Source: an uncultured Spirochaetota bacterium
GTDB taxonomy: Bacteria; Spirochaetota; Spirochaetia; SZUA-6; CAVTHK01
Direction of reading: 5' to 3'
Assembly (NCBI GenBank): GCA_963734495.1
Contig: CAVTHK010000007.1
Span: forward strand, 32,001 to 96,000
Length of the DNA stretch: 64,000 nucleotides
Below, in pieces: positions 1-61,777 of the stretch. The stretch's first letter is position 1. The number at the start of each line of letters is the position of its first letter. The notes under the pieces were generated by a model. It did no database searches, was not told the DNA's origin, and saw nothing but the letters and a program-made list of their open reading frames with translations. The position numbers and the translations under genes were made by a program.

Positions 1-326
1 GTGCACATGTCGGGCCGATTGAGGCCGCAGGAAAGGCAGCGTCCGCAGCCGCGGCGCACGGTAAAGACGGCCAGGTCTCCCGTGCGCACCCTGCGCACGG
101 CGTCGCCCGCCTCCACGACGCGGCCGAGCATCTCGTGGCCGATCACGAGCTCGGCCCGGCCGTCGGGCGCCAGCGCCCGGCCGCCCGCGGCCTCCTCCCG
201 ATCGGTGCCGCAGACTCCGACGCGAACGACCTGCACCTTGATCTCGCGATCGGACGCGATCGCGGGCTCGTCTCGCTCCACGATCCGAAGGTCCTTCCGG
301 CCGGGAGTCAGCGCGATCGCCTTCAA
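1..326 (-). CDS. Zn-dependent glucose 1-dehydrogenase-like MDR alcohol dehydrogenase (5' part; runs off the window)
   Basis: Not in the ORF track. Manual translation from TTG at 326 (SD AGGAGG at 331-336) gives MKAIALTPG...GVCGTD...IGHEMLG...RRGCGRCLSCGLNRPDMC, which has the catalytic Zn motifs (CGTD, GHE) and the structural Zn Cys cluster. Confidence 0.85.
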   Translation of the reverse strand, partial: MKAIALTPGRKDLRIVERDEPAIASDREIKVQVVRVGVCGTDREEAAGGRALAPDGRAELVIGHEMLGRVVEAGDAVRRVRTGDLAVFTVRRGCGRCLSCGLNRPDMC

Positions 327-2686: not shown

Positions 2687-4422
2687 TCAGCCAAGCGCGC
2701 GCAGGGCCGCCAGCCAGCGCCGGCACTGCAGCGAAAACTCCCGGAACGCCCGCGCCGCCTGCTCCTGCACGTCCGCGCTCAGGGCGCGGTAGCGGCGCCG
2801 CGCTCGCATGAGGGCGCGCACTATGCTCCTGCGCAGGCCGCGGGCGAGTCGGGCGCGGCCGCTGCCGATCACGCGCGCCACCCTTCCGCCGAGCGCGAGC
2901 GCCGCGCGGGCGAGCAGCGCGGCCAGCGCCTCCGCTTCGAGGATGCGCCGCGTGATGGCGAAAAAGTGGTAGCCCTTGATCGCGAGGGCGACCGCGTCCG
3001 GGAACTGCCGGGGCCGATGCGATCAGAACGCCTCCCAGAAAGCGCAGGTACGCCCCGCCGTAGCGCGAGAAGCCCTGCCTCAGGAGCGACAGAAGCAGCG
3101 CCCTGATGCTCGACCAGGTCACCCGCTGCACGACCCTGGTCGTGGGGGGCAGGCGCCGCATGAGCTCGACGCAGCGCTCGAAATAGCGGGCCGGCTCGTA
3201 GACCTCCGCGAGCACTCTCTTGTAGCCGGCGATCAAGGTCTCCGCGGGCATCCGCGTGACAAAGCTGAGCTTGAGGTCGTGGGTGTTGTTTCCGCTCGAG
3301 TCCTCGAGGAGGCGCCCCTCGGCGGCGAGACGCCTGTGCAGGCGCGTGCCCGGGAGCGCCGTGAGCAGGCCGACCATCGCGGTCGGGATCGCCGCCTCCT
3401 GGATGAGCCTGACCTGCCGCTCGAAGATGTCGGGAGGGTCGGTGTCGAAGCCGACGATGAACCCGCCGGTCACCTCCATCCCGTGGCGCTGGATCGCTCG
3501 TATGCTGTCGAGCGCCGAAGCCTTGAGGTTCTGCCGCTTCCCGGTAAAGGCGAGCGTGGCTTCGTCCGGGGTCTCGATCCCCACGAACACCATCGTGAAG
3601 GCAGCCGCCTCCATCAGCGCCAGCAGCTCCGCGTCCTGCGCCAGGTCGATGCTCGCCTCCGTGGAGAACGTGAAAGGGAACCCGTGCGCCTGCTGCCACT
3701 CGACGACCGCGCGCAGGAGGTCCCGGGTCTTTCTCCTGTTGCCGACGAAATTGTCGTCGACGACAAAGACGTGCCCGCGGAACCCCGCGTCGTAGACCGT
3801 CTCCAGCTCGCCGGCGAACTGCTCGCGGGCTCTTGGTCCGCTGAACGCGGCCGAAAAGCTCGATGATGTCGCAGAACTCGCAATCGTACGGGCAGCCCCT
3901 GGAGTACTGCAGGGGCATGCTGTCGTACGCGCTGAGGTCGACGAGGTCGAAGCGCGGCGCAGGCGTGCGCGTGATGTCGGCGCGCCCGCGATCGCGGTAG
4001 ACGCGCCTCGCCCGGCCGCCCTCGAGGTCGGCGAGCAGCCGCGGCAGGGTCAGCTCCGCTTCGCCGAGGACAAAGACGTCCACGCCGCTGATGCGCTCGT
4101 GAGACGTCGTCGGGTACGGGCCCCCGGCGACGACGGGCGTGTCGCATTCGTTGCAGAGCCGCACCACGTCCTCGAACGAGCTCTTCTGCGCGATCATCGC
4201 AGAGACGAAGACGACGTCGGCCGACTCCACGTCCTCGCGCGGCAGGGGTGCGACGTTGAGGTCGACGAGCCTGACGTCGTAGTCGTCAGGGAGCATGCCG
4301 GCCACGGTCAGCAGGCCGAGGGGCGGGAGCGATGCGCGCTTGCCGATAAACGGCAGCGCGTGGCTGAAGCTCCAGTAAGTGTCGGGGAACTTGGGATAGA
4401 CCATCAGGACTCTGGTGCTCAT
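2687..4422 (-). CDS. B12-binding radical SAM protein with C-terminal DUF4070-like domain (2 frameshifts)
   Basis: PPLGLLTVA and VAGGPY in the B12-binding domain, CPYDCEFC radical SAM motif, VFVGIET and GGFIVGFD. Shifts near 3830 and 3020. Confidence 0.85.
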
Positions 4423-31907: not shown

Positions 31908-32150
31908 GCCCTCACCTCTCGGAAACAGGCTTGCCGGGCGTAGTTAATTTCGTTCCGGCCTCGACGTCGCCGGCGGCGCGGACCGCCGTGCACCGCGGCC
32001 CGCGCGCACTTTCCGGGTGGACGCGCATCGCCGGCCGCTCTGGCCGGCGCATGATCTCATGCGCGCGACCATTTGGTCAACGTGTACGAAACGCGAGGAT
32101 TGCATGCGATCTCGAGCCGCGGCGCAAGGCGGCCCGGGGACGGCGCGCGA

Positions 32151-56854: not shown

Positions 56855-57955
56855 TCACTCCAGGCTCGTCACGTCCGCGGTGGGCCAGGAGTACACCTCG
56901 AAGCTGAGGCTGCGCTCGCCGCCGTCCTGCTCGCCGGTGATCAGCGGCAGCACGAACAGCATCCGCAGGCGGGCTTCGGCCGAATCCCAGTATTCGCCCG
57001 CATAGCGCAGGGCGCCCATCGGGAAGTGCGAGAGCCTCCTTCCGTCCGCGCCGTAGATGCGCGCCTCGTCGCCGTGGCGGGCGAACAGCCGCCCTGTGCT
57101 GAGCACCGCGTCGATCCGGAATCCGTCCAGGAGCAGGGACGCGGTCGCGGAGGTGTTGCTCCATCGATAGGTCGTGCAGGCGCCATAAACGCCGGGCACG
57201 GACAGGTAGCTGTAGCCGGTCGCGGGGCTGTAGTGGTAGAACGAGGTCGTATCGATCGCCGCCGGCAGGCCGGCGATCGGCGCCGATGCCAGGACCGGAC
57301 CGGTCAGCGAAGGCGGCGAGGACCCATCGAGAGTCACCTCCCCTTCCTGGTAGCCGGTGCCGGCAGTGACCGGCGCCACGAAGCGCAGCCGACGCTGCGT
57401 CGGGAGCGCGGGGTCCGGCGGGTACACGAAGACGCCGACCACGTTCGGGGCCATCGAGGCGAACGCGGCTTGCGATGCCACCCAGCCCTTGAAATCGTTG
57501 TTAGGCGGCGCCGGGTCCTCGAGAGCGAGCGTCGAGCCGAGCACGCCGATCCACGTCCACAGGAATGGAGTCGACAGCCGCATGAGGAGGAGCCGGCCGG
57601 CAGCCGCCGGCGCGCTCAGCAGCATCGGCACGCGCGCGTCCTGCCACAGGCCGCTGCTCCACTGCCCCGGCGCCACGATGCCCCCGCCGGGCGAATAGGC
57701 CGCGACTACGTACCCCGGGCCGGTGCCCAGAATCCACCCCTGGAGCATGCCTCCGTCGAGCGCGGCGCGCTCGGGCACGAACGCATAGTCGACCGTCGCG
57801 TCGATGCTGCCGACGAACGGCCCTGCGACGCCGACGAGGTCCAGCTTTGCCGTCGTGAGCCGCGCCAGCGACAGCTCGGGGTTGAACGGCGGGAAACGGC
57901 AGGCCGCGAGCGACGCGAGCAGCAGCGCGAGGAGGGCGCGCCTCACCTGTACCAT
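56855..57955 (-). CDS. hypothetical beta-rich lipoprotein
   Basis: MVQVRRALLALLLASLAAC lipobox; beta-strand-rich mature region. Confidence 0.75.
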   Translation of the reverse strand: MVQVRRALLALLLASLAACRFPPFNPELSLARLTTAKLDLVGVAGPFVGSIDATVDYAFVPERAALDGGMLQGWILGTGPGYVVAAYSPGGGIVAPGQWSSGLWQDARVPMLLSAPAAAGRLLLMRLSTPFLWTWIGVLGSTLALEDPAPPNNDFKGWVASQAAFASMAPNVVGVFVYPPDPALPTQRRLRFVAPVTAGTGYQEGEVTLDGSSPPSLTGPVLASAPIAGLPAAIDTTSFYHYSPATGYSYLSVPGVYGACTTYRWSNTSATASLLLDGFRIDAVLSTGRLFARHGDEARIYGADGRRLSHFPMGALRYAGEYWDSAEARLRMLFVLPLITGEQDGGERSLSFEVYSWPTADVTSLE

Positions 57956-59178
57956 CGCAGCCCCACCCTGAACGCGACGAAGTCGATCAGCACTCCGCCG
58001 AGCGCCCCGCCCCACCACGGCTTGTAGAAGTAGCCGCCGCTCCGCTGGCCGTCGACGGTGATCGTGGCCTCGACTGTCGTAGAGTCCGCGCCGTGGACGT
58101 CGTAGACGACCGGGCCGTAGTCGGCGAACATCCGCGCACGCTTCGTCCCCTTGACCTCGACCCCGGCGGCCACGCGGTACGCGAATGCCGCGACGGGGTC
58201 CAGCGCTACGACGCGGTCCGTGTGCATGAGGCGTGCAGCGCCGGACGCGTCGACGTAGGGCCGCACGGCGGCGTCCGCGTCGAGAGGGGTGTAGCCGAAG
58301 CCGGCGACGAGCTCAGTGAGCGGAAGGTTCGCGGCGGTCTCGTCTTCGCCTTCGTTGCGGAGCCACGGGGCGAACACGTACGTGGTGAGCCCGAGGCGGA
58401 AATAGAACGGCCCGAGCAGCCTTCCCGCCGATGCACCCAGGTAGCTCAGGTTCAGGGTGTACCCTTCGAACAGCCAGCGAGGAGCCGGCGTCTGCGGGAC
58501 GCTGACCGTGCCGTCGGCGGCGGAGAGGTAGAGCTCCTCGCGCGCGGGCAGGTCTCCGTCCCGCAGCGCCTCGATCCGGTAGAACCCGGGCCTGACCACG
58601 GCCACGCGGCCCGTCCCGTCGGGACCGATCTGCACCGGCTTTTCCGCCAGGCCCTCCACGGCCGTTCCCGGCAGCGCCTCCACGGCGATCTCCGCGGCGC
58701 TGGCCACCGGCTCCCCCGCTTCTCCGCCCGCGAACTGCGCCGCCACCGCGGCCGCGAGACCGTCCCACGTCGCGACGTCGGCACCGGACAGGGCGGGCAC
58801 AGGGAAGGTCTTCGCGGCGACGAGCCTGCCGCTGCGGAGGTCCGCGCCGGTGACGGCGGCGCTCAGCCCCCCGCCGCCGCGCGAAACCGAAACGCGGACC
58901 CACGCATCCGCTCCCCGGCTCGACGCCTTGGCGCCGCGTTCCTCGTCGGACGCGGGCACCGCGAGCGTGTCGGATTCAACGACGGCGACGGACGCGCGCT
59001 GCAGCCGCGCGAGCAGCGTCTCGTAGAGGAAAACGAGGTCTTCCCGCGCCAGGGCCCCGGGCGGCGACGCCTCGAAGTACAGCATGACCCGCCGCCTGGC
59101 GTCCTGCTCCAGGGACCAGGCAAGAACGGCCGAGAGCGCGAGCAGGGCCCCGATCGCAACCCTTCTTCTCAATCTCAT
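57943..59178 (-). CDS. putative outer-membrane protein (periplasmic alpha/beta domain + PEGA-like + C-terminal beta-barrel)
   Basis: Signal peptide MRLRRRVAIGALLALSAVLAWS; amphipathic strands ending FRVGLRWYR. Confidence 0.65.
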   Translation of the reverse strand: MRLRRRVAIGALLALSAVLAWSLEQDARRRVMLYFEASPPGALAREDLVFLYETLLARLQRASVAVVESDTLAVPASDEERGAKASSRGADAWVRVSVSRGGGGLSAAVTGADLRSGRLVAAKTFPVPALSGADVATWDGLAAAVAAQFAGGEAGEPVASAAEIAVEALPGTAVEGLAEKPVQIGPDGTGRVAVVRPGFYRIEALRDGDLPAREELYLSAADGTVSVPQTPAPRWLFEGYTLNLSYLGASAGRLLGPFYFRLGLTTYVFAPWLRNEGEDETAANLPLTELVAGFGYTPLDADAAVRPYVDASGAARLMHTDRVVALDPVAAFAYRVAAGVEVKGTKRARMFADYGPVVYDVHGADSTTVEATITVDGQRSGGYFYKPWWGGALGGVLIDFVAFRVGLRWYR

Positions 59179-60386
59179 CAACGCCACTTGTACACCAGGC
59201 CGACGGACATGGGCGGTCCCATGTCCTGAATCTGGAGCCATCCCCGCGGGAGGAGGTCGGACGAGTCCTCGATGGCGTACTTGCCTTCGACGCGGAAGTA
59301 GACCGCCCATTTCCGCGTGTTCCACTCGAGCCACAAGTTCGCCGGGCTCACGTAGAGGTCGACTGCGTCGCCCGCGTCCCGCTCCGCGAAGATCGTGACG
59401 ATGCCGCCGAAGCCTGCCGCGAGGCCCACCCGGAAGGGCGAGTACGGGCCCAGGAAGAGGTAGCGGCCCACGAGGAAGCGGATGTCGTCGTGGAACACCG
59501 GCGAGGCCTCGGGCGCGAAGTTGCTCTGAAGGTAGAAGTAGCTGTCGCCGCTCACGAAGAGCCTGTCCGGCTCCAGATAGTAGCGCACGCCCAGGCCCAG
59601 GCCGACGATCTGTCCGGTCGTGTACACGGCCTCCGCGGCCCACCGGGTTTCGGGCCACATCGGGCCCAGCGCGGTTTCGCCGGCCCCGGGGGCCACGCGG
59701 ATCTTCTGGGAGCGGGGCTGGAACCCCGGCTTGCGGGTTTCCACCGTCAGCCGCAGACCGCCCGTGGCCGTCGGCAACACGGCCCGCCCCTGCGCGACGG
59801 TGGCGATCGGCCGGCCGCCGATGAGGACCTCGGCGCCTTCGTCCACGGACCGCAGCGTGAGGTCGTGCACCCTGGAGGCGAGCTCGGGCGGCACCGGCCC
59901 GGCTGCGGGCTCCACGAGCGAGAGCGCATCGACTACAGCGTCGTTGACGAGAATCGTGACGGCCAGGCCGGTGCGACCGCTGCGGACGGCCGAGGCGATC
60001 AGCCGGTCGTCCTTCGCGTCGTAGAGTCTGACCTCGAGGACGATGCGGTTGTCCTCTATGCGGTAGGAGCCGGTGATCGCCAGATCCGCGCCGAGGGCGC
60101 GCGCCACAGCGACCGCCTTCGGCCCGAACACGAGGTCCCCGGCCGGGATCCCGAGGCGCGCCCTGGCCTGCTCCCAGAGCGCGGGCTCCACGACGCGCAG
60201 CCCGGCGTTCGACGCCTCGACGTTCAGCGCCTCGGCGAGGATCCGCCCGTATTGCTCTTCGGCCCCACCCGGCGACAGGTTCGCTGCGGTCAACACCACC
60301 GCGGTGCGCCCGGCACCCGGCTGTTGCTGAGCGGCCGCGCATGCGGCGGCGGCAAGCAGCAGACAGAGACCAACCGGTAAGCGGAT
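59178..60386 (-). CDS. putative outer-membrane protein (TolB_N/CsgG-like + PEGA-like + C-terminal beta-barrel)
   Basis: Signal peptide from ATC at 60386 (RLPVGLCLLLAAAACAAA); ARALGADLAITGSY; GAEVLIGG PEGA-like; ends SVGLVYKWR. Confidence 0.7.
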   Translation of the reverse strand: MRLPVGLCLLLAAAACAAAQQQPGAGRTAVVLTAANLSPGGAEEQYGRILAEALNVEASNAGLRVVEPALWEQARARLGIPAGDLVFGPKAVAVARALGADLAITGSYRIEDNRIVLEVRLYDAKDDRLIASAVRSGRTGLAVTILVNDAVVDALSLVEPAAGPVPPELASRVHDLTLRSVDEGAEVLIGGRPIATVAQGRAVLPTATGGLRLTVETRKPGFQPRSQKIRVAPGAGETALGPMWPETRWAAEAVYTTGQIVGLGLGVRYYLEPDRLFVSGDSYFYLQSNFAPEASPVFHDDIRFLVGRYLFLGPYSPFRVGLAAGFGGIVTIFAERDAGDAVDLYVSPANLWLEWNTRKWAVYFRVEGKYAIEDSSDLLPRGWLQIQDMGPPMSVGLVYKWR

Positions 60387-60420
60387 GATGCACCCTCCCT
60401 TGCGGTCCCCTGTCGCCGTC

Positions 60421-60663
60421 GGGCTGAGCCATCCGTGGCTCTTGCCCACGCGGTCGTACATCTCCGGCGAGTACGCACCCCCTCGCTGCGCTCGGGGCCT
60501 TCGGGGACCAGGGCGCATGTACTCGCGTGGGCAAGCCCATCCATGGCCGGCCTTGCCTGGCGCTATCGTACGTCCATGTACAGCGCCGGGCTGAGCCGTC
60601 CATGGCTCTTGGCCGGCGCTATTGTACATCCGTGTACGCGCCGGCCTGTGGCATCCCTGCCAC
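60421..60663 (-). ncRNA. structured array of ANGGA-loop hairpins: candidate CsrA-binding sRNA or 5' leader
   Basis: Six stems closing C-ANGGAY-G hexaloops. Loops at 60431-36 ACGGAU, 60539-44 AUGGAU, 60572-77 AUGGAC, 60598-603 AUGGAC, 60628-33 ACGGAU, 60653-58 AGGGAU. Internal direct repeats present. Confidence 0.6.
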
Positions 60664-60692
60664 TTGCAAACCCTCGGAAGTGTATATATCAT
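60664..60692 (+). promoter_or_regulatory. sigma70-type promoter for TPR-greA
   Basis: TTGCAA (60664-60669), 17 bp, TATCAT (60687-60692). Confidence 0.65.
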
Positions 60693-60710
60693 CAACTTGG
60701 ACTAAATCAA
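60683..60710 (-). promoter_or_regulatory. candidate divergent promoter driving the hairpin array and outer-membrane operon
   Basis: TTGATT (60710-60705), 16 bp, TGa-TATATA (60688-60683); overlaps the + strand promoter. Confidence 0.45.
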
Positions 60711-60826
60711 GCTCGCAACAAGAGCTATGTGTACGGGAGAACAGCGGGCCAGCAGCTCTCGGCGATGGCGACCCTCCTGGCGCGGCGCCGGGGAGCGTTC
60801 GCCTGTCGACGCCAGTGTGTTCGGCG

Positions 60827-61777
60827 ATGGAAGAGAAGCAGCTGACCTTCAAGGAAGACGAGATCTCGCAGATGCTCAATCACGCCTTCGACCTGTTCCG
60901 GGAAGGGCGCTTCCCCGAAGCGGCCTCCCAGCTCGAGAAGGTGCTGCGCATCGACTTCGACTACCCTGACGTCACCGCCTCTCTCAAGTGCGCCAACTTC
61001 TGGCGCGAAAGGCAGGAGCAGCTCGCCACCATCGGAGAGCCCTACGAGCGGGGCGAGCTCCTGCTCGGAGAGTGGCGTCATTTCGTCGACTTCGTGCAGC
61101 GGATCGGCGGGGTCTCGGAAAAGGGCCTGTTCAGCGTGAGGCAGTACGTGTTCGGCACGGCGCTCGCGGCCTACCGCGGCCTCGCCGAGCAAGGCGGGTA
61201 CGACGCGGACCTGCTGCTGCGGATCGGGCGCTGCTACAAGGAGCTGGGGAGCTACGACCTCGCGATCGAGAGCCTGGAAAAGGCCAATCAGATGAAGAAT
61301 GGCGTCCCGTCGGTCCTCGCGGAGCTGGCGGACTGCTACGCCCTCGTGGGAGAGACGAGGTCCAGCAAGATCTTCTTCCGCGAGGCGTTCTTCCTGGGCG
61401 CCCGCGAGATCGATCTCTCGACGCTGGAGTCCGGCATGATCCAGAGGCTCGTGCAGCGGCTTCGGGGGATGGACCTGAGCGAGTCGGAAGTGCGCGAATG
61501 GGTCCCGGTCTACGGCACGGTGTACGGCGTGCTGAACGTCAAGCGGGAGCTGCGGCCGCTCGAATACGGCAAGCTCAAGCAGTCGATCTTCCGCATGGAG
61601 AACCAGCTCGAGACCGACAGGCAGGAGCGCGATCTGCTGGTGCCGCGCCTGCTGAACCATTACTTCTGGCTGATCGACCATTACGCGAGCACGGGTGAGG
61701 AGCGCGCACACGTCGAGGAGGTCCTCACCAGGGTAAAGCGCCTCGACCCAGCGATCTACAGGGAATACACGCGATAG
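60827..61777 (+). CDS. conserved spirochaete TPR protein upstream of greA
   Basis: TPR motifs (LLLRIGRCYKELGSYDLAIESLEKA), FREAFF, LLNHYFWLIDHY. Confidence 0.82.
   Translation: MEEKQLTFKEDEISQMLNHAFDLFREGRFPEAASQLEKVLRIDFDYPDVTASLKCANFWRERQEQLATIGEPYERGELLLGEWRHFVDFVQRIGGVSEKGLFSVRQYVFGTALAAYRGLAEQGGYDADLLLRIGRCYKELGSYDLAIESLEKANQMKNGVPSVLAELADCYALVGETRSSKIFFREAFFLGAREIDLSTLESGMIQRLVQRLRGMDLSESEVREWVPVYGTVYGVLNVKRELRPLEYGKLKQSIFRMENQLETDRQERDLLVPRLLNHYFWLIDHYASTGEERAHVEEVLTRVKRLDPAIYREYTR

Follow-up and report, generated by a model that had tools for sequence, protein, structure and literature searches.

What is an array of six GGA hairpins, packed within about 240 nt on one strand of a spirochaete contig? 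The array lies in a 64,000-nt stretch of DNA from an uncultured Spirochaetota bacterium (positions 32,001 to 96,000 of contig CAVTHK010000007.1). This whole stretch is called the window, and coordinates without a contig label refer to it. The initial annotation proposed a CsrB/RsmZ-like sponge RNA that titrates CsrA, or else a CsrA-controlled 5' leader of an outer-membrane operon. We find that the array is a local group of repeats from a dispersed family whose modular unit has two hairpins. The family is present in many copies, keeps its loops while the stems covary, and turns over fast between related genomes. Judged by sequence and architecture, it is a spirochaete analogue of the TwoAYGGAY elements, uncatalogued and distinguished by tandem and nested modularity and by anchoring on stop codons and -35 boxes.

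The repeat unit and its copies

The repeat unit is 63 nt long. A short hairpin, B, comes first and immediately after it a longer one, A, which has a 3' bulge of 2-4 nt; both loops have the invariant columns C-A-n-G-G-A-y-G. Pairs of C-ANGGAY-G motifs 17-18 nt apart occur 25 times genome-wide, against about 0.6-0.8 expected. In the 25 units recognized by this loop pattern the GGA-to-GGA spacing is 25 nt (16 units) or 26 nt (9 units), and the commonest B loop is AGGGAU, found in 14 of them.

The family signal emerges only for intergenic hairpins, longer stems and paired hairpins. Counted genome-wide, the 181 AYGGAY hairpins are not above control loops (111-347). Hexaloop enrichment was computed for intergenic versus coding hairpins with stems of at least 5 pairs, for which the overall ratio is 0.32. 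Among the most enriched loops were AGGGAT/ATCCCT (27/28 intergenic vs 6/4 coding), GAGTAC/GTACTC (71/68 vs 22/28) and ACGGAT (14 vs 5). The genome contains 85 intergenic C-ANGGAY-G hairpins, and the enriched hairpins group at about 35 loci. Arrays comparable to that in the window, with 4-8 hairpins, lie at C3:171.8k, C7:143.9-144.2k, C7:103.7k, C13:136.0-136.2k, C10:349.0k and C16:86.4k of the same genome. With about six arrays of similar size elsewhere, the window array is therefore not unique.

Eleven unit copies from other loci, with no window sequence among them, were aligned and served as the seed of a covariance model, R1. In this seed alignment 92.8% of the cells are paired and 15 of the 19 pairs are changed on both sides, a result reached by none of 500 shuffles; when the alignment was slid as a control, 30-42% of the cells were paired. 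The inner stems had been partly selected by the hairpin scan, but the 8-pair outer stem of hairpin A had not, and in this stem 97.7% of the cells are paired with double changes at 8/8 pairs. RNAalifold returned the same two hairpins from the alignment, with unpaired flanking columns and no enclosing stem. Searching this genome with R1 gave 57 matches at E<=1 and 47 at E<=1e-3. The first unit of the window array is among them, and within the window R1 matches at this locus only.

The array in the window

Read on the minus strand, the array consists of unit 1, unit 2, a degenerate hairpin B3, a module C and a hairpin B4, after which comes a Shine-Dalgarno (SD) sequence. Unit 1 (60605-60668) is matched by R1 with 45 bits (E = 2.4e-8), the seed being free of window sequence. 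It is composed of hairpin B1, gtggc-AGGGAT-gccac (60648-60663), found by the independent hairpin scan, and of the nested hairpin A1, GGCCGGCGC-GUAC-ACGGAU-GUAC-aaua-GCGCCGGCC (60611-60646, inner part 60624-60637), recognized from the sequence and the scan. Unit 2 (60556-60608) and hairpin B4 are partial R1 matches only, at 15-17 bits, with 17 bits for unit 2. In unit 2 the hairpin B2, gagcc-ATGGAC-ggctc (60593-60608, independent scan), precedes the nested hairpin A2, GGCGCU-GUAC-AUGGAC-GUAC-gau-AGCGCC, which extends over about 60556-60591 (listed as 60559-60587) and has one extra 5' bulge. The scan version of its inner hairpin is tgtac-ATGGAC-gtacg (60567-60582). When located by the 8-nt loop pattern, 7/8 pairs of its outer stem are Watson-Crick pairs.

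Downstream of unit 2 the array becomes less regular. The degenerate B-type hairpin B3, CAAGGCCGGCC-AUGGAU-GGGCUUG (60532-60555, minus strand), was read from the sequence; its core CC-AUGGAU-GG (60537-60546) has only 2 pairs of its own and sits inside a degenerate CAAGGCC..GGGCTTG. Module C (60445-60531, minus strand) is an A-type hairpin, CCCACGCG-GUAC..GUAC-..CGCGUGGG, in which the AYGGAY loop is split by an insert. The loop is interrupted by GCGCCCUGG plus a CG-UACU-CG hairpin, and in the window copy a second insert is nested within the first. This insert, GCGCCYUGG plus CCGGCG-UACU-CGCCGG, has 19 strict copies in the genome and is the source of the GTACTC hairpin loops mentioned above. By BLAST, positions 60464-60516 of module C are 96% identical over 53 nt to C16:86540-86592. 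The last hairpin, B4, is GAGCC-ACGGAU-GGCUC (60426-60441, minus strand; hairpin scan), 24 nt upstream of the SD sequence.

The six minus-strand hairpins with C-ANGGAY-G loops reported in the initial annotation were thus recovered, the five strong ones in an independent scan, and the differing stems around a constant loop are seen both in the window and in the seed alignment. The motif GTACAYGGAYGTAC, allowing at most one mismatch, occurs twice in the window against 0.00 expected from 100 shuffles. The 321-nt leader folds with -165.3 kcal/mol (z = -5.88), and none of 100 shuffles folded as well.

Distribution and turnover among relatives

We searched 30 relatives with R1 at E<=1e-3, with 150 first-look candidates per genome. 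G001, the congener, had 21 units, three members of a second family had 7, 3 and 1, and under these settings the other 26 relatives gave none. Of 151 genomes sampled evenly across the phylum, 7, this one included, had R1 matches at E<=1e-4 with stricter filters; one of these searches gave 12 matches in a 2.5-Mb genome of a distant spirochaete family. Across the R1 searches, scoring covered 35-150 first-look candidates per genome. In the other genomes the loops are kept on unrelated stems, and the G+C content of the matches ranges from 47 to 79%. The initial annotation had suggested looking for copies in the genome and in relatives, and for stem covariation around an invariant GGA; both were found, with 47 units in this genome, 21 in the congener and double changes at 15/19 pairs. 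In the low-G+C spirochaete G095 (L082 1440-1580, minus strand) the gene for a methyl-accepting chemotaxis protein has a unit directly behind its stop codon. The first hairpin of this unit is found again 90 nt downstream, before leuS, as part of a 35-nt segment that contains AUGUAC-AAGGAU-GUACAU.

Comparison with the congener shows how individual sites evolve. At C13:136k of this genome and C11:58k of G001 one unit is kept beside the same divergent promoter. Its B loop is AUGGAU in both and its A loop is AUGGAU in one and AGGGAU in the other, while the stems are entirely different and the rest of the array differs as well. The conserved position with changed stems indicates therefore that elements persist at sites while their content changes fast. 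At C13:39k synteny with the congener is broken at the element, and at the kdpA-kdpB junction only element-to-element matches were found.

The C13 site (C13:136037-136183, minus strand; L031, corresponding to G001 C11:58.7k, L058) holds a five-hairpin array between a divergent gene start and a converging gene end, so it is not in an obvious mRNA leader. If any of these arrays is a free-standing small RNA (sRNA), this one is a better candidate than the window array.

Anchoring of the units

The placement of the 47 R1 units was assessed with codon-usage gene calls. All but one (46/47) lie outside called genes, and one lies inside. Two kinds of 5' end recur. Twelve of the 47 units overlap the last 5-6 nt of a co-oriented open reading frame (ORF) with their first nucleotides, and the stop codon is the first triplet of the B 5' arm, for example in TGAGCAC..GTGCUCG and UAGGACC..GGUCCUG; two of the twelve are duplicates of one region. 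Since the stop codon of a co-oriented gene lies within B, these twelve units are necessarily transcribed in the GGA sense if the gene is expressed. Half of these genes (six of the 12) end in TAC-TGA or TAC-TAG. TAC plus a stop codon (TGA/TAG) opens B at C13:39353, C7:144143, C3:235693, C3:171886, C4:11446 and C2:99225, in six unrelated genes, and host genes may owe their final codon and their stop to the 5' end of the element (..TACTGAG..).

The other kind comprises 14 of the 47 units, that of the window included. These open with GUCAAG or UGCAAG, the reverse complement of a TTGAC/TTGCA hexamer, and have TAnnnT 16-18 nt beyond the hexamer, pointing away from the unit to the divergent gene. As controls, 98 of 20000 random intergenic windows had this arrangement, and 696 of 6288 intergenic TTGMMN hexamers were followed by TAnnnT. 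Reading the 47 sequences by eye, a -10 box was present in 14 of the 16 units that bear such a hexamer. The window array belongs to this promoter-anchored class, and both classes also occur at loci of G001, G009 and G028; the nearly closed genome G009 holds at least 7 units. One promoter-anchored unit, at C13:226250-226313 (minus strand; L032), has a near-perfect sense promoter, TTGTGA-17-TATAAT, about 20 nt upstream of it.

The Csr system of the host

The genome has 5.38 Mb with 68% G+C and is 83% complete. It carries three genes for FlaA sheath proteins, a family found in 0/14 control genomes, which marks the host as a spirochaete, as assumed at the outset. The presence of csrA and fliW was also borne out: the two genes are adjacent and lie downstream of an flgL-like gene. 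CsrA is canonical, and among proteins of solved structure the one nearest to it is CsrA from the CsrA-FliW complex (5DMB, E = 3.5e-19). In all four flagellin leaders a single GGA hexaloop hairpin precedes a GGAGG or GGAG SD sequence by 12-22 nt. These hairpins are ccggac-AUGGAG-guccgg (twice), gggc-AGGGAC-gccc and ggggcau-AAGGAU-gugcccc. The flagellin genes, where one would look for it, thus have the classic two-site CsrA arrangement with loops of the array's type, and hairpin B4 with its SD sequence has the same hairpin-plus-SD layout. Five further unit-bearing genomes were examined and all have csrA, which is weak evidence because csrA is common in the phylum.

The loops fit a CsrA-type hairpin site, as the initial annotation had it, and are putative sites on sequence grounds. 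Together with its closing pair the unit loop is the same as CANGGANG, the core of the RsmE/CsrA site, and as ACARGGAUGU in the CsrA consensus obtained by systematic evolution of ligands by exponential enrichment (SELEX). One CsrA dimer can span a pair of sites separated by tens of nucleotides, and this agrees with the fixed GGA spacing of 25-26 nt in the units.

Comparison with known systems

Of the families already described, the TwoAYGGAY RNA motif (RF01731; Weinberg et al. 2010, PMC2864571) comes nearest. The spirochaete units resemble it in having two adjacent hairpins with C-AYGGAY-G loops, in being multi-copy, intergenic and repeat-associated with a variable copy number, and in being putative, proposed binders of CsrA/Rsm proteins. 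With the Rfam model the window gave 21.5 bits (E = 2.5, core match 60584-60638), below the gathering score of 43 bits, and the genome gave five weak matches of 19.9-22.5 bits with none above that score. The alignment of RF01731 to five units spans model positions 47-111 of 168, which is the two-hairpin core. With such low scores and no basal stem, the units do not qualify as members by the Rfam criterion, although they are built in a similar way. RF01731 had no match at E<=1 at 20 more loci of the spirochaete family, and no Rfam family reached its threshold at the window locus or at those 20 loci.

There are further differences from TwoAYGGAY. The spirochaete units have no common basal stem according to RNAalifold, the second loop position can be any base, often G or A and not only Y, and hairpin A has a 3' bulge. 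They form tandem arrays, accept nested hairpin insertions in the loop and have 5' ends anchored on stop codons or -35 boxes, and the host is a spirochaete with a FliW-type CsrA. Gardner & Eldai 2015 (PMC4333381) propose the TwoAYGGAY loops as CsrA sites and the RNA as a CsrA-binding sRNA. For Pseudomonas, a preprint describes TwoAYGGAY as multi-copy, with a median of 11-23 per genome beside arrays of repetitive extragenic palindromic (REP) sequences, and as 'mobile-element-like' and a possible multivalent Csr/Rsm sponge; in its main-text passages the family is reported for Pseudomonadota and Bacillota only (bioRxiv 10.64898/2026.09.22.753630).

Like CsrB, CsrC and RsmX/Y/Z of Gammaproteobacteria, the array concentrates many GGA hairpin loops in a single stretch and could titrate CsrA. 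However, those RNAs are conserved stand-alone genes with their own regulated promoter and terminator, whereas the array has no terminator and is not conserved. Unlike theirs, its hairpins belong to a dispersed repeat and have no Rfam match, and between 59800 and 61300 none of these families gave a match up to E = 10.

CsrA-repressed flagellin leaders, such as those of hag in B. subtilis and flaB in Borrelia, offer another comparison. As in these, an upstream GGA hairpin (B4) is combined with a GGA in the SD sequence. Leaders of the hag/flaB type are single-copy, conserved and tied to flagellin, whereas the leader in the window is built from repeats and absent from its ortholog. The flaA mRNA of Campylobacter is reported to be both target and titrator of CsrA (PMC4894983). 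The array resembles the flaA leader in that there an mRNA leader sets a precedent for acting in both ways.

REP sequences and the bacterial interspersed mosaic elements (BIMEs) built from them are multi-copy, GC-rich intergenic hairpins, often located just past stop codons and assembled into composite arrays. The spirochaete family resembles them in its many dispersed intergenic palindromic copies (47 R1 matches, 85 C-ANGGAY-G hairpins). It differs in that the loop is conserved and not the stem or a flanking tetranucleotide, and in that no RAYT was found. In the portion of the literature that was available, no description of such hairpin repeat elements in spirochaetes was found.

Neighbouring genes and promoter signals

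The hairpin array occupies a spacer of about 440 bp between two divergent genes, with an AT-rich promoter patch on one side and the SD sequence of a FlgO-like gene on the other. A long upstream ORF on the minus strand was judged spurious by codon-position G+C and a codon-usage gene caller: this 505-aa ORF from TTG 60695 is a G+C artefact. Codon usage supports coding only from about 60389 downward, and the array as coding sequence is rejected. With this ORF dismissed, the real neighbours are a tetratricopeptide repeat (TPR) gene and the FlgO-like gene, and the array is therefore divergent intergenic. The TPR-repeat protein gene (60827-61777, plus strand, ATG 60827) is supported by its ORF translation, Pfam TPR families and the codon-usage gene call. 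The FlgO-like gene downstream of the array (59178-60389, minus strand) encodes a lipoprotein-like protein with a FlgO-like N-terminal domain (PF17680, 31.3 bits, cut-off 22.6), and its signal peptide begins at ATC 60389.

The GGA-containing SD sequence noted earlier is present: AAGGGAGGG at 60394-60402 (minus strand), read from the sequence, precedes the FlgO-like ORF. There is no in-frame ATG, GTG or TTG between this SD and the signal peptide, and the nearest in-frame ATG (60461) and GTG (60449) have no well-placed SD. The start of the FlgO-like gene appears to be non-canonical in both congeners, here ATC 60389 or the next ATC, 60386, located 4-7 nt past GGAGG, and in the G001 ortholog (L009 about 2712-2735, minus strand) an ATT located 6 nt past GGAGG. 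Upstream of the FlgO-like ortholog of G004 (L013 1-100) two direct repeats of about 30 nt (..gggtgcgtggattgaaacacc..) occur with a spacer between them, and they look like the end of an array of clustered regularly interspaced short palindromic repeats (CRISPR). Two more minus-strand genes follow the FlgO-like gene (57943-59085 and 56855-57946). The three probably form one operon, because their ends overlap or adjoin; the product of the second downstream gene (387 aa; 56855-57946, minus strand) has no Pfam match.

A consensus scan of 60300-60900 found a sole promoter-like site, the sigma-70-like TTGCAA-17-TATCAT at 60664-60692 (plus strand), which points toward the TPR gene. Repeat unit 1 opens with TGCAAG, which in reverse complement forms the -35 box of this promoter, and the promoter is kept in the congener as TTGCAT-17-TATCAT. 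The minus-strand promoter suggested in the initial annotation, TTGATT-16-TATATA at 60683-60710, fares only partly as well. The AT-rich patch around it, some 60 nt, is almost unchanged in the congener, but the promoter itself has no -7 T and was not picked up by the consensus scan. The earlier remark that no terminator is visible holds, with 0 terminator-like sites in 60300-60900. On the plus strand, the presumed leader of the TPR mRNA begins with some 40 nt (60700-60740) that hardly differ in the congener. They hold an inverted repeat, AGCTC-gcaacaa-GAGCT, which may regulate the TPR gene as a hairpin or as an operator.

Possible roles of the repeat family

Asymmetric loops that stay conserved while the stems covary indicate that some factor recognizes the hairpin loop in its single-stranded state. 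Loop conservation, the likeness to CsrA sites, the spacing of 25-26 nt, the presence of csrA and the layout of the flagellin leaders therefore favour CsrA. We put it at even chances that the family is an RNA-level, CsrA-type binding module in untranslated regions (UTRs), and that the window array is a leader target of the FlgO-like gene and a local titrator. In a transcript of the GGA sense one unit would offer two sites to one CsrA dimer. The window copy would be transcribed in this sense if the FlgO-like operon starts in the AT-rich patch. The last hairpin, B4, and the GGA-containing SD could then make the FlgO-like leader CsrA-responsive, as proposed for the flagellin leaders, and the array together with roughly 100 other hairpins would be a distributed CsrA-titrating load and not a single sponge gene.

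Several observations weigh against a CsrA-binding role. The mismatches in the stems were used as a strand test, and 13 G-T versus 4 A-C mismatches (p = 0.049) is an underpowered result. Moreover, 11 of the 13 G-T mismatches are in the B stem and 9 of them in its two outermost pairs, where the T pair of the stop codon lies, and the outer A stem has 2 G-T versus 4 A-C. A recognizable sense-strand promoter (TTGNNN-16..18-TANNNT) was found upstream of only 2 of 16 promoter-anchored arrays, the L032 unit being one of the two, and none was found upstream of the window array. As to orientation, 15 of 46 units are co-oriented with both neighbours, 15 lie in divergent spacers, 12 have both neighbours opposite and 4 are convergent. 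Part of the family, including part of the promoter-anchored class, is probably antisense to local transcription. The 20 flanking genes that were scanned are functionally unrelated, with no enrichment of motility or chemotaxis; they include the KdpA/KdpB junction, an extracytoplasmic function (ECF) sigma factor, 6PGD, TruA, RNase H and transporters.

The orthologous loci count against it as well. In the congener the same gene pair is present and the promoter patch is near-identical through TGCAAG.G.CAGGG, after which the similarity stops. The orthologous leader is about 140 nt long, has no GGA hexaloop and does not fold significantly (z = -1.15), and the orthologous loci in six more distant genomes have no array. 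With these loci lacking it and the unit dispersed 47 times, the original proposal of a leader that evolved for the outer-membrane operon is not sustained. Finally, the elements turn over rapidly between related genomes, and their nested insertions and copy-number differences resemble selfish spread.

These last features lead to the rival that survives best. The family could be a selfish or structural DNA repeat similar to REP sequences or miniature inverted-repeat transposable elements (MITEs), its likeness to CsrA sites being incidental and the window array having no regulatory role. The hairpins would then act as single-stranded DNA for a mobilizing enzyme, to which the constancy of the loops would be due, or as stable 3' or 5' stem-loops. 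The family is multi-copy with a patchy phyletic spread, its arrays vary in length and take insertions inside hairpin loops, and the content of orthologous leaders differs. Units occur in both orientations relative to neighbouring genes of unrelated function, direct CTGAG, CAAG or CTAG words flank them, and the precise 5' anchoring at stop codons and -35 boxes could be a target preference. Pseudomonas TwoAYGGAY elements are likewise described as mobile-element-like in the preprint. The initial annotation had itself named a REP/MITE family, with many orientation-independent copies and unconserved loops, as the finding that would speak against it. The copies are indeed many and in both orientations, but the loops are strictly conserved.

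A mobilizing enzyme was looked for. The Y1/RAYT transposase family PF01797 has 0 matches in this genome, which is 83% complete, and the units show no terminal inverted repeats. One unit is followed at 223 nt by a Y2 transposase of the IS91 family. However, of 31 relatives 20 have Y2/IS91 transposases, 15 of these being among the 26 that lack units (units are present in 5 of 31), so there is no specific association with the units. Two near-identical blocks of this genome, C18:52143-55536 and C1:859100-860300, consist of an upstream ORF, a stop-codon-anchored unit, about 230 nt and an IS91-family transposase gene, which encodes Y2_Tnp and Zn_Tnp_IS91 domains in both. IS91 elements are reported to target CTTG/GTTC, and such words occur in hairpin B stems (GTTCTTG). 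What speaks against a purely selfish repeat is that the asymmetric 8-nt loop motif is the same in both hairpins and equals the binding site of a regulator that the genome encodes, as placed on its flagellin leaders. We regard the selfish repeat as possible but not probable.

An intermediate scenario joins spread to function. An RNA module able to spread by itself, and bearing a ready platform on which one CsrA dimer can bind, would have colonized the UTRs of several spirochaete lineages, rewiring CsrA targets and making a distributed sponge of more than 100 hairpins. The module would settle precisely on stop codons and -35 boxes, and the FlgO-like leader would be a recently captured target. 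We consider this scenario doubtful.

Less probable still is a promoter-associated DNA element, which might donate a -35 box or insulate divergent promoters and would not be read as RNA at such sites, the window included. The anchoring of 14 of the 47 units on -35/-10 sequences fits this idea, as do the same arrangement at G001 and G028 loci and the start of the window copy on the -35 box of the TPR gene. It leaves unexplained the invariant asymmetric loops, the covarying stems and the 12 stop-codon-anchored copies, and sites in double-stranded DNA normally conserve the arms of a palindrome and not its centre. We judge it improbable.

A dedicated CsrB/RsmZ-like sponge sRNA gene at the window locus, as first proposed, is very improbable: the six GGA hairpins in about 240 nt, the conserved AT-rich patch upstream and the presence of csrA would suit it, but the array is part of a dispersed repeat with about six similar arrays in the genome, has no terminator and runs into the SD and the ORF, has a weak and unconvincing sense promoter, gives no CsrB, CsrC or RsmX/Y/Z match at E<=10, and is not conserved in the congener or at six other orthologous loci. 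A riboswitch or attenuator was rejected, as there is no Rfam match and no conservation.

Implications

To our knowledge, the protein FliW is the only known antagonist of CsrA in the spirochaete phylum. In line with the initial annotation, no RNA antagonist of CsrA described for spirochaetes was found in the part of the literature that was available. If CsrA binds these elements, a repeat has distributed more than 100 high-affinity hairpins, decoys or targets, over the genome of a spirochaete with a FliW-type CsrA. This would add an RNA layer to CsrA control outside Gammaproteobacteria, and it would show a mobile repeat redistributing the sites of a global post-transcriptional regulator. The two anchoring rules are a concrete clue to how the elements spread or are tolerated. 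Rfam misses these elements, and a model like R1 would annotate them and prevent single arrays from being taken for novel sRNA genes. If CsrA does not bind, the units still constitute a cleanly described new family of structured repeats in the Spirochaetota.

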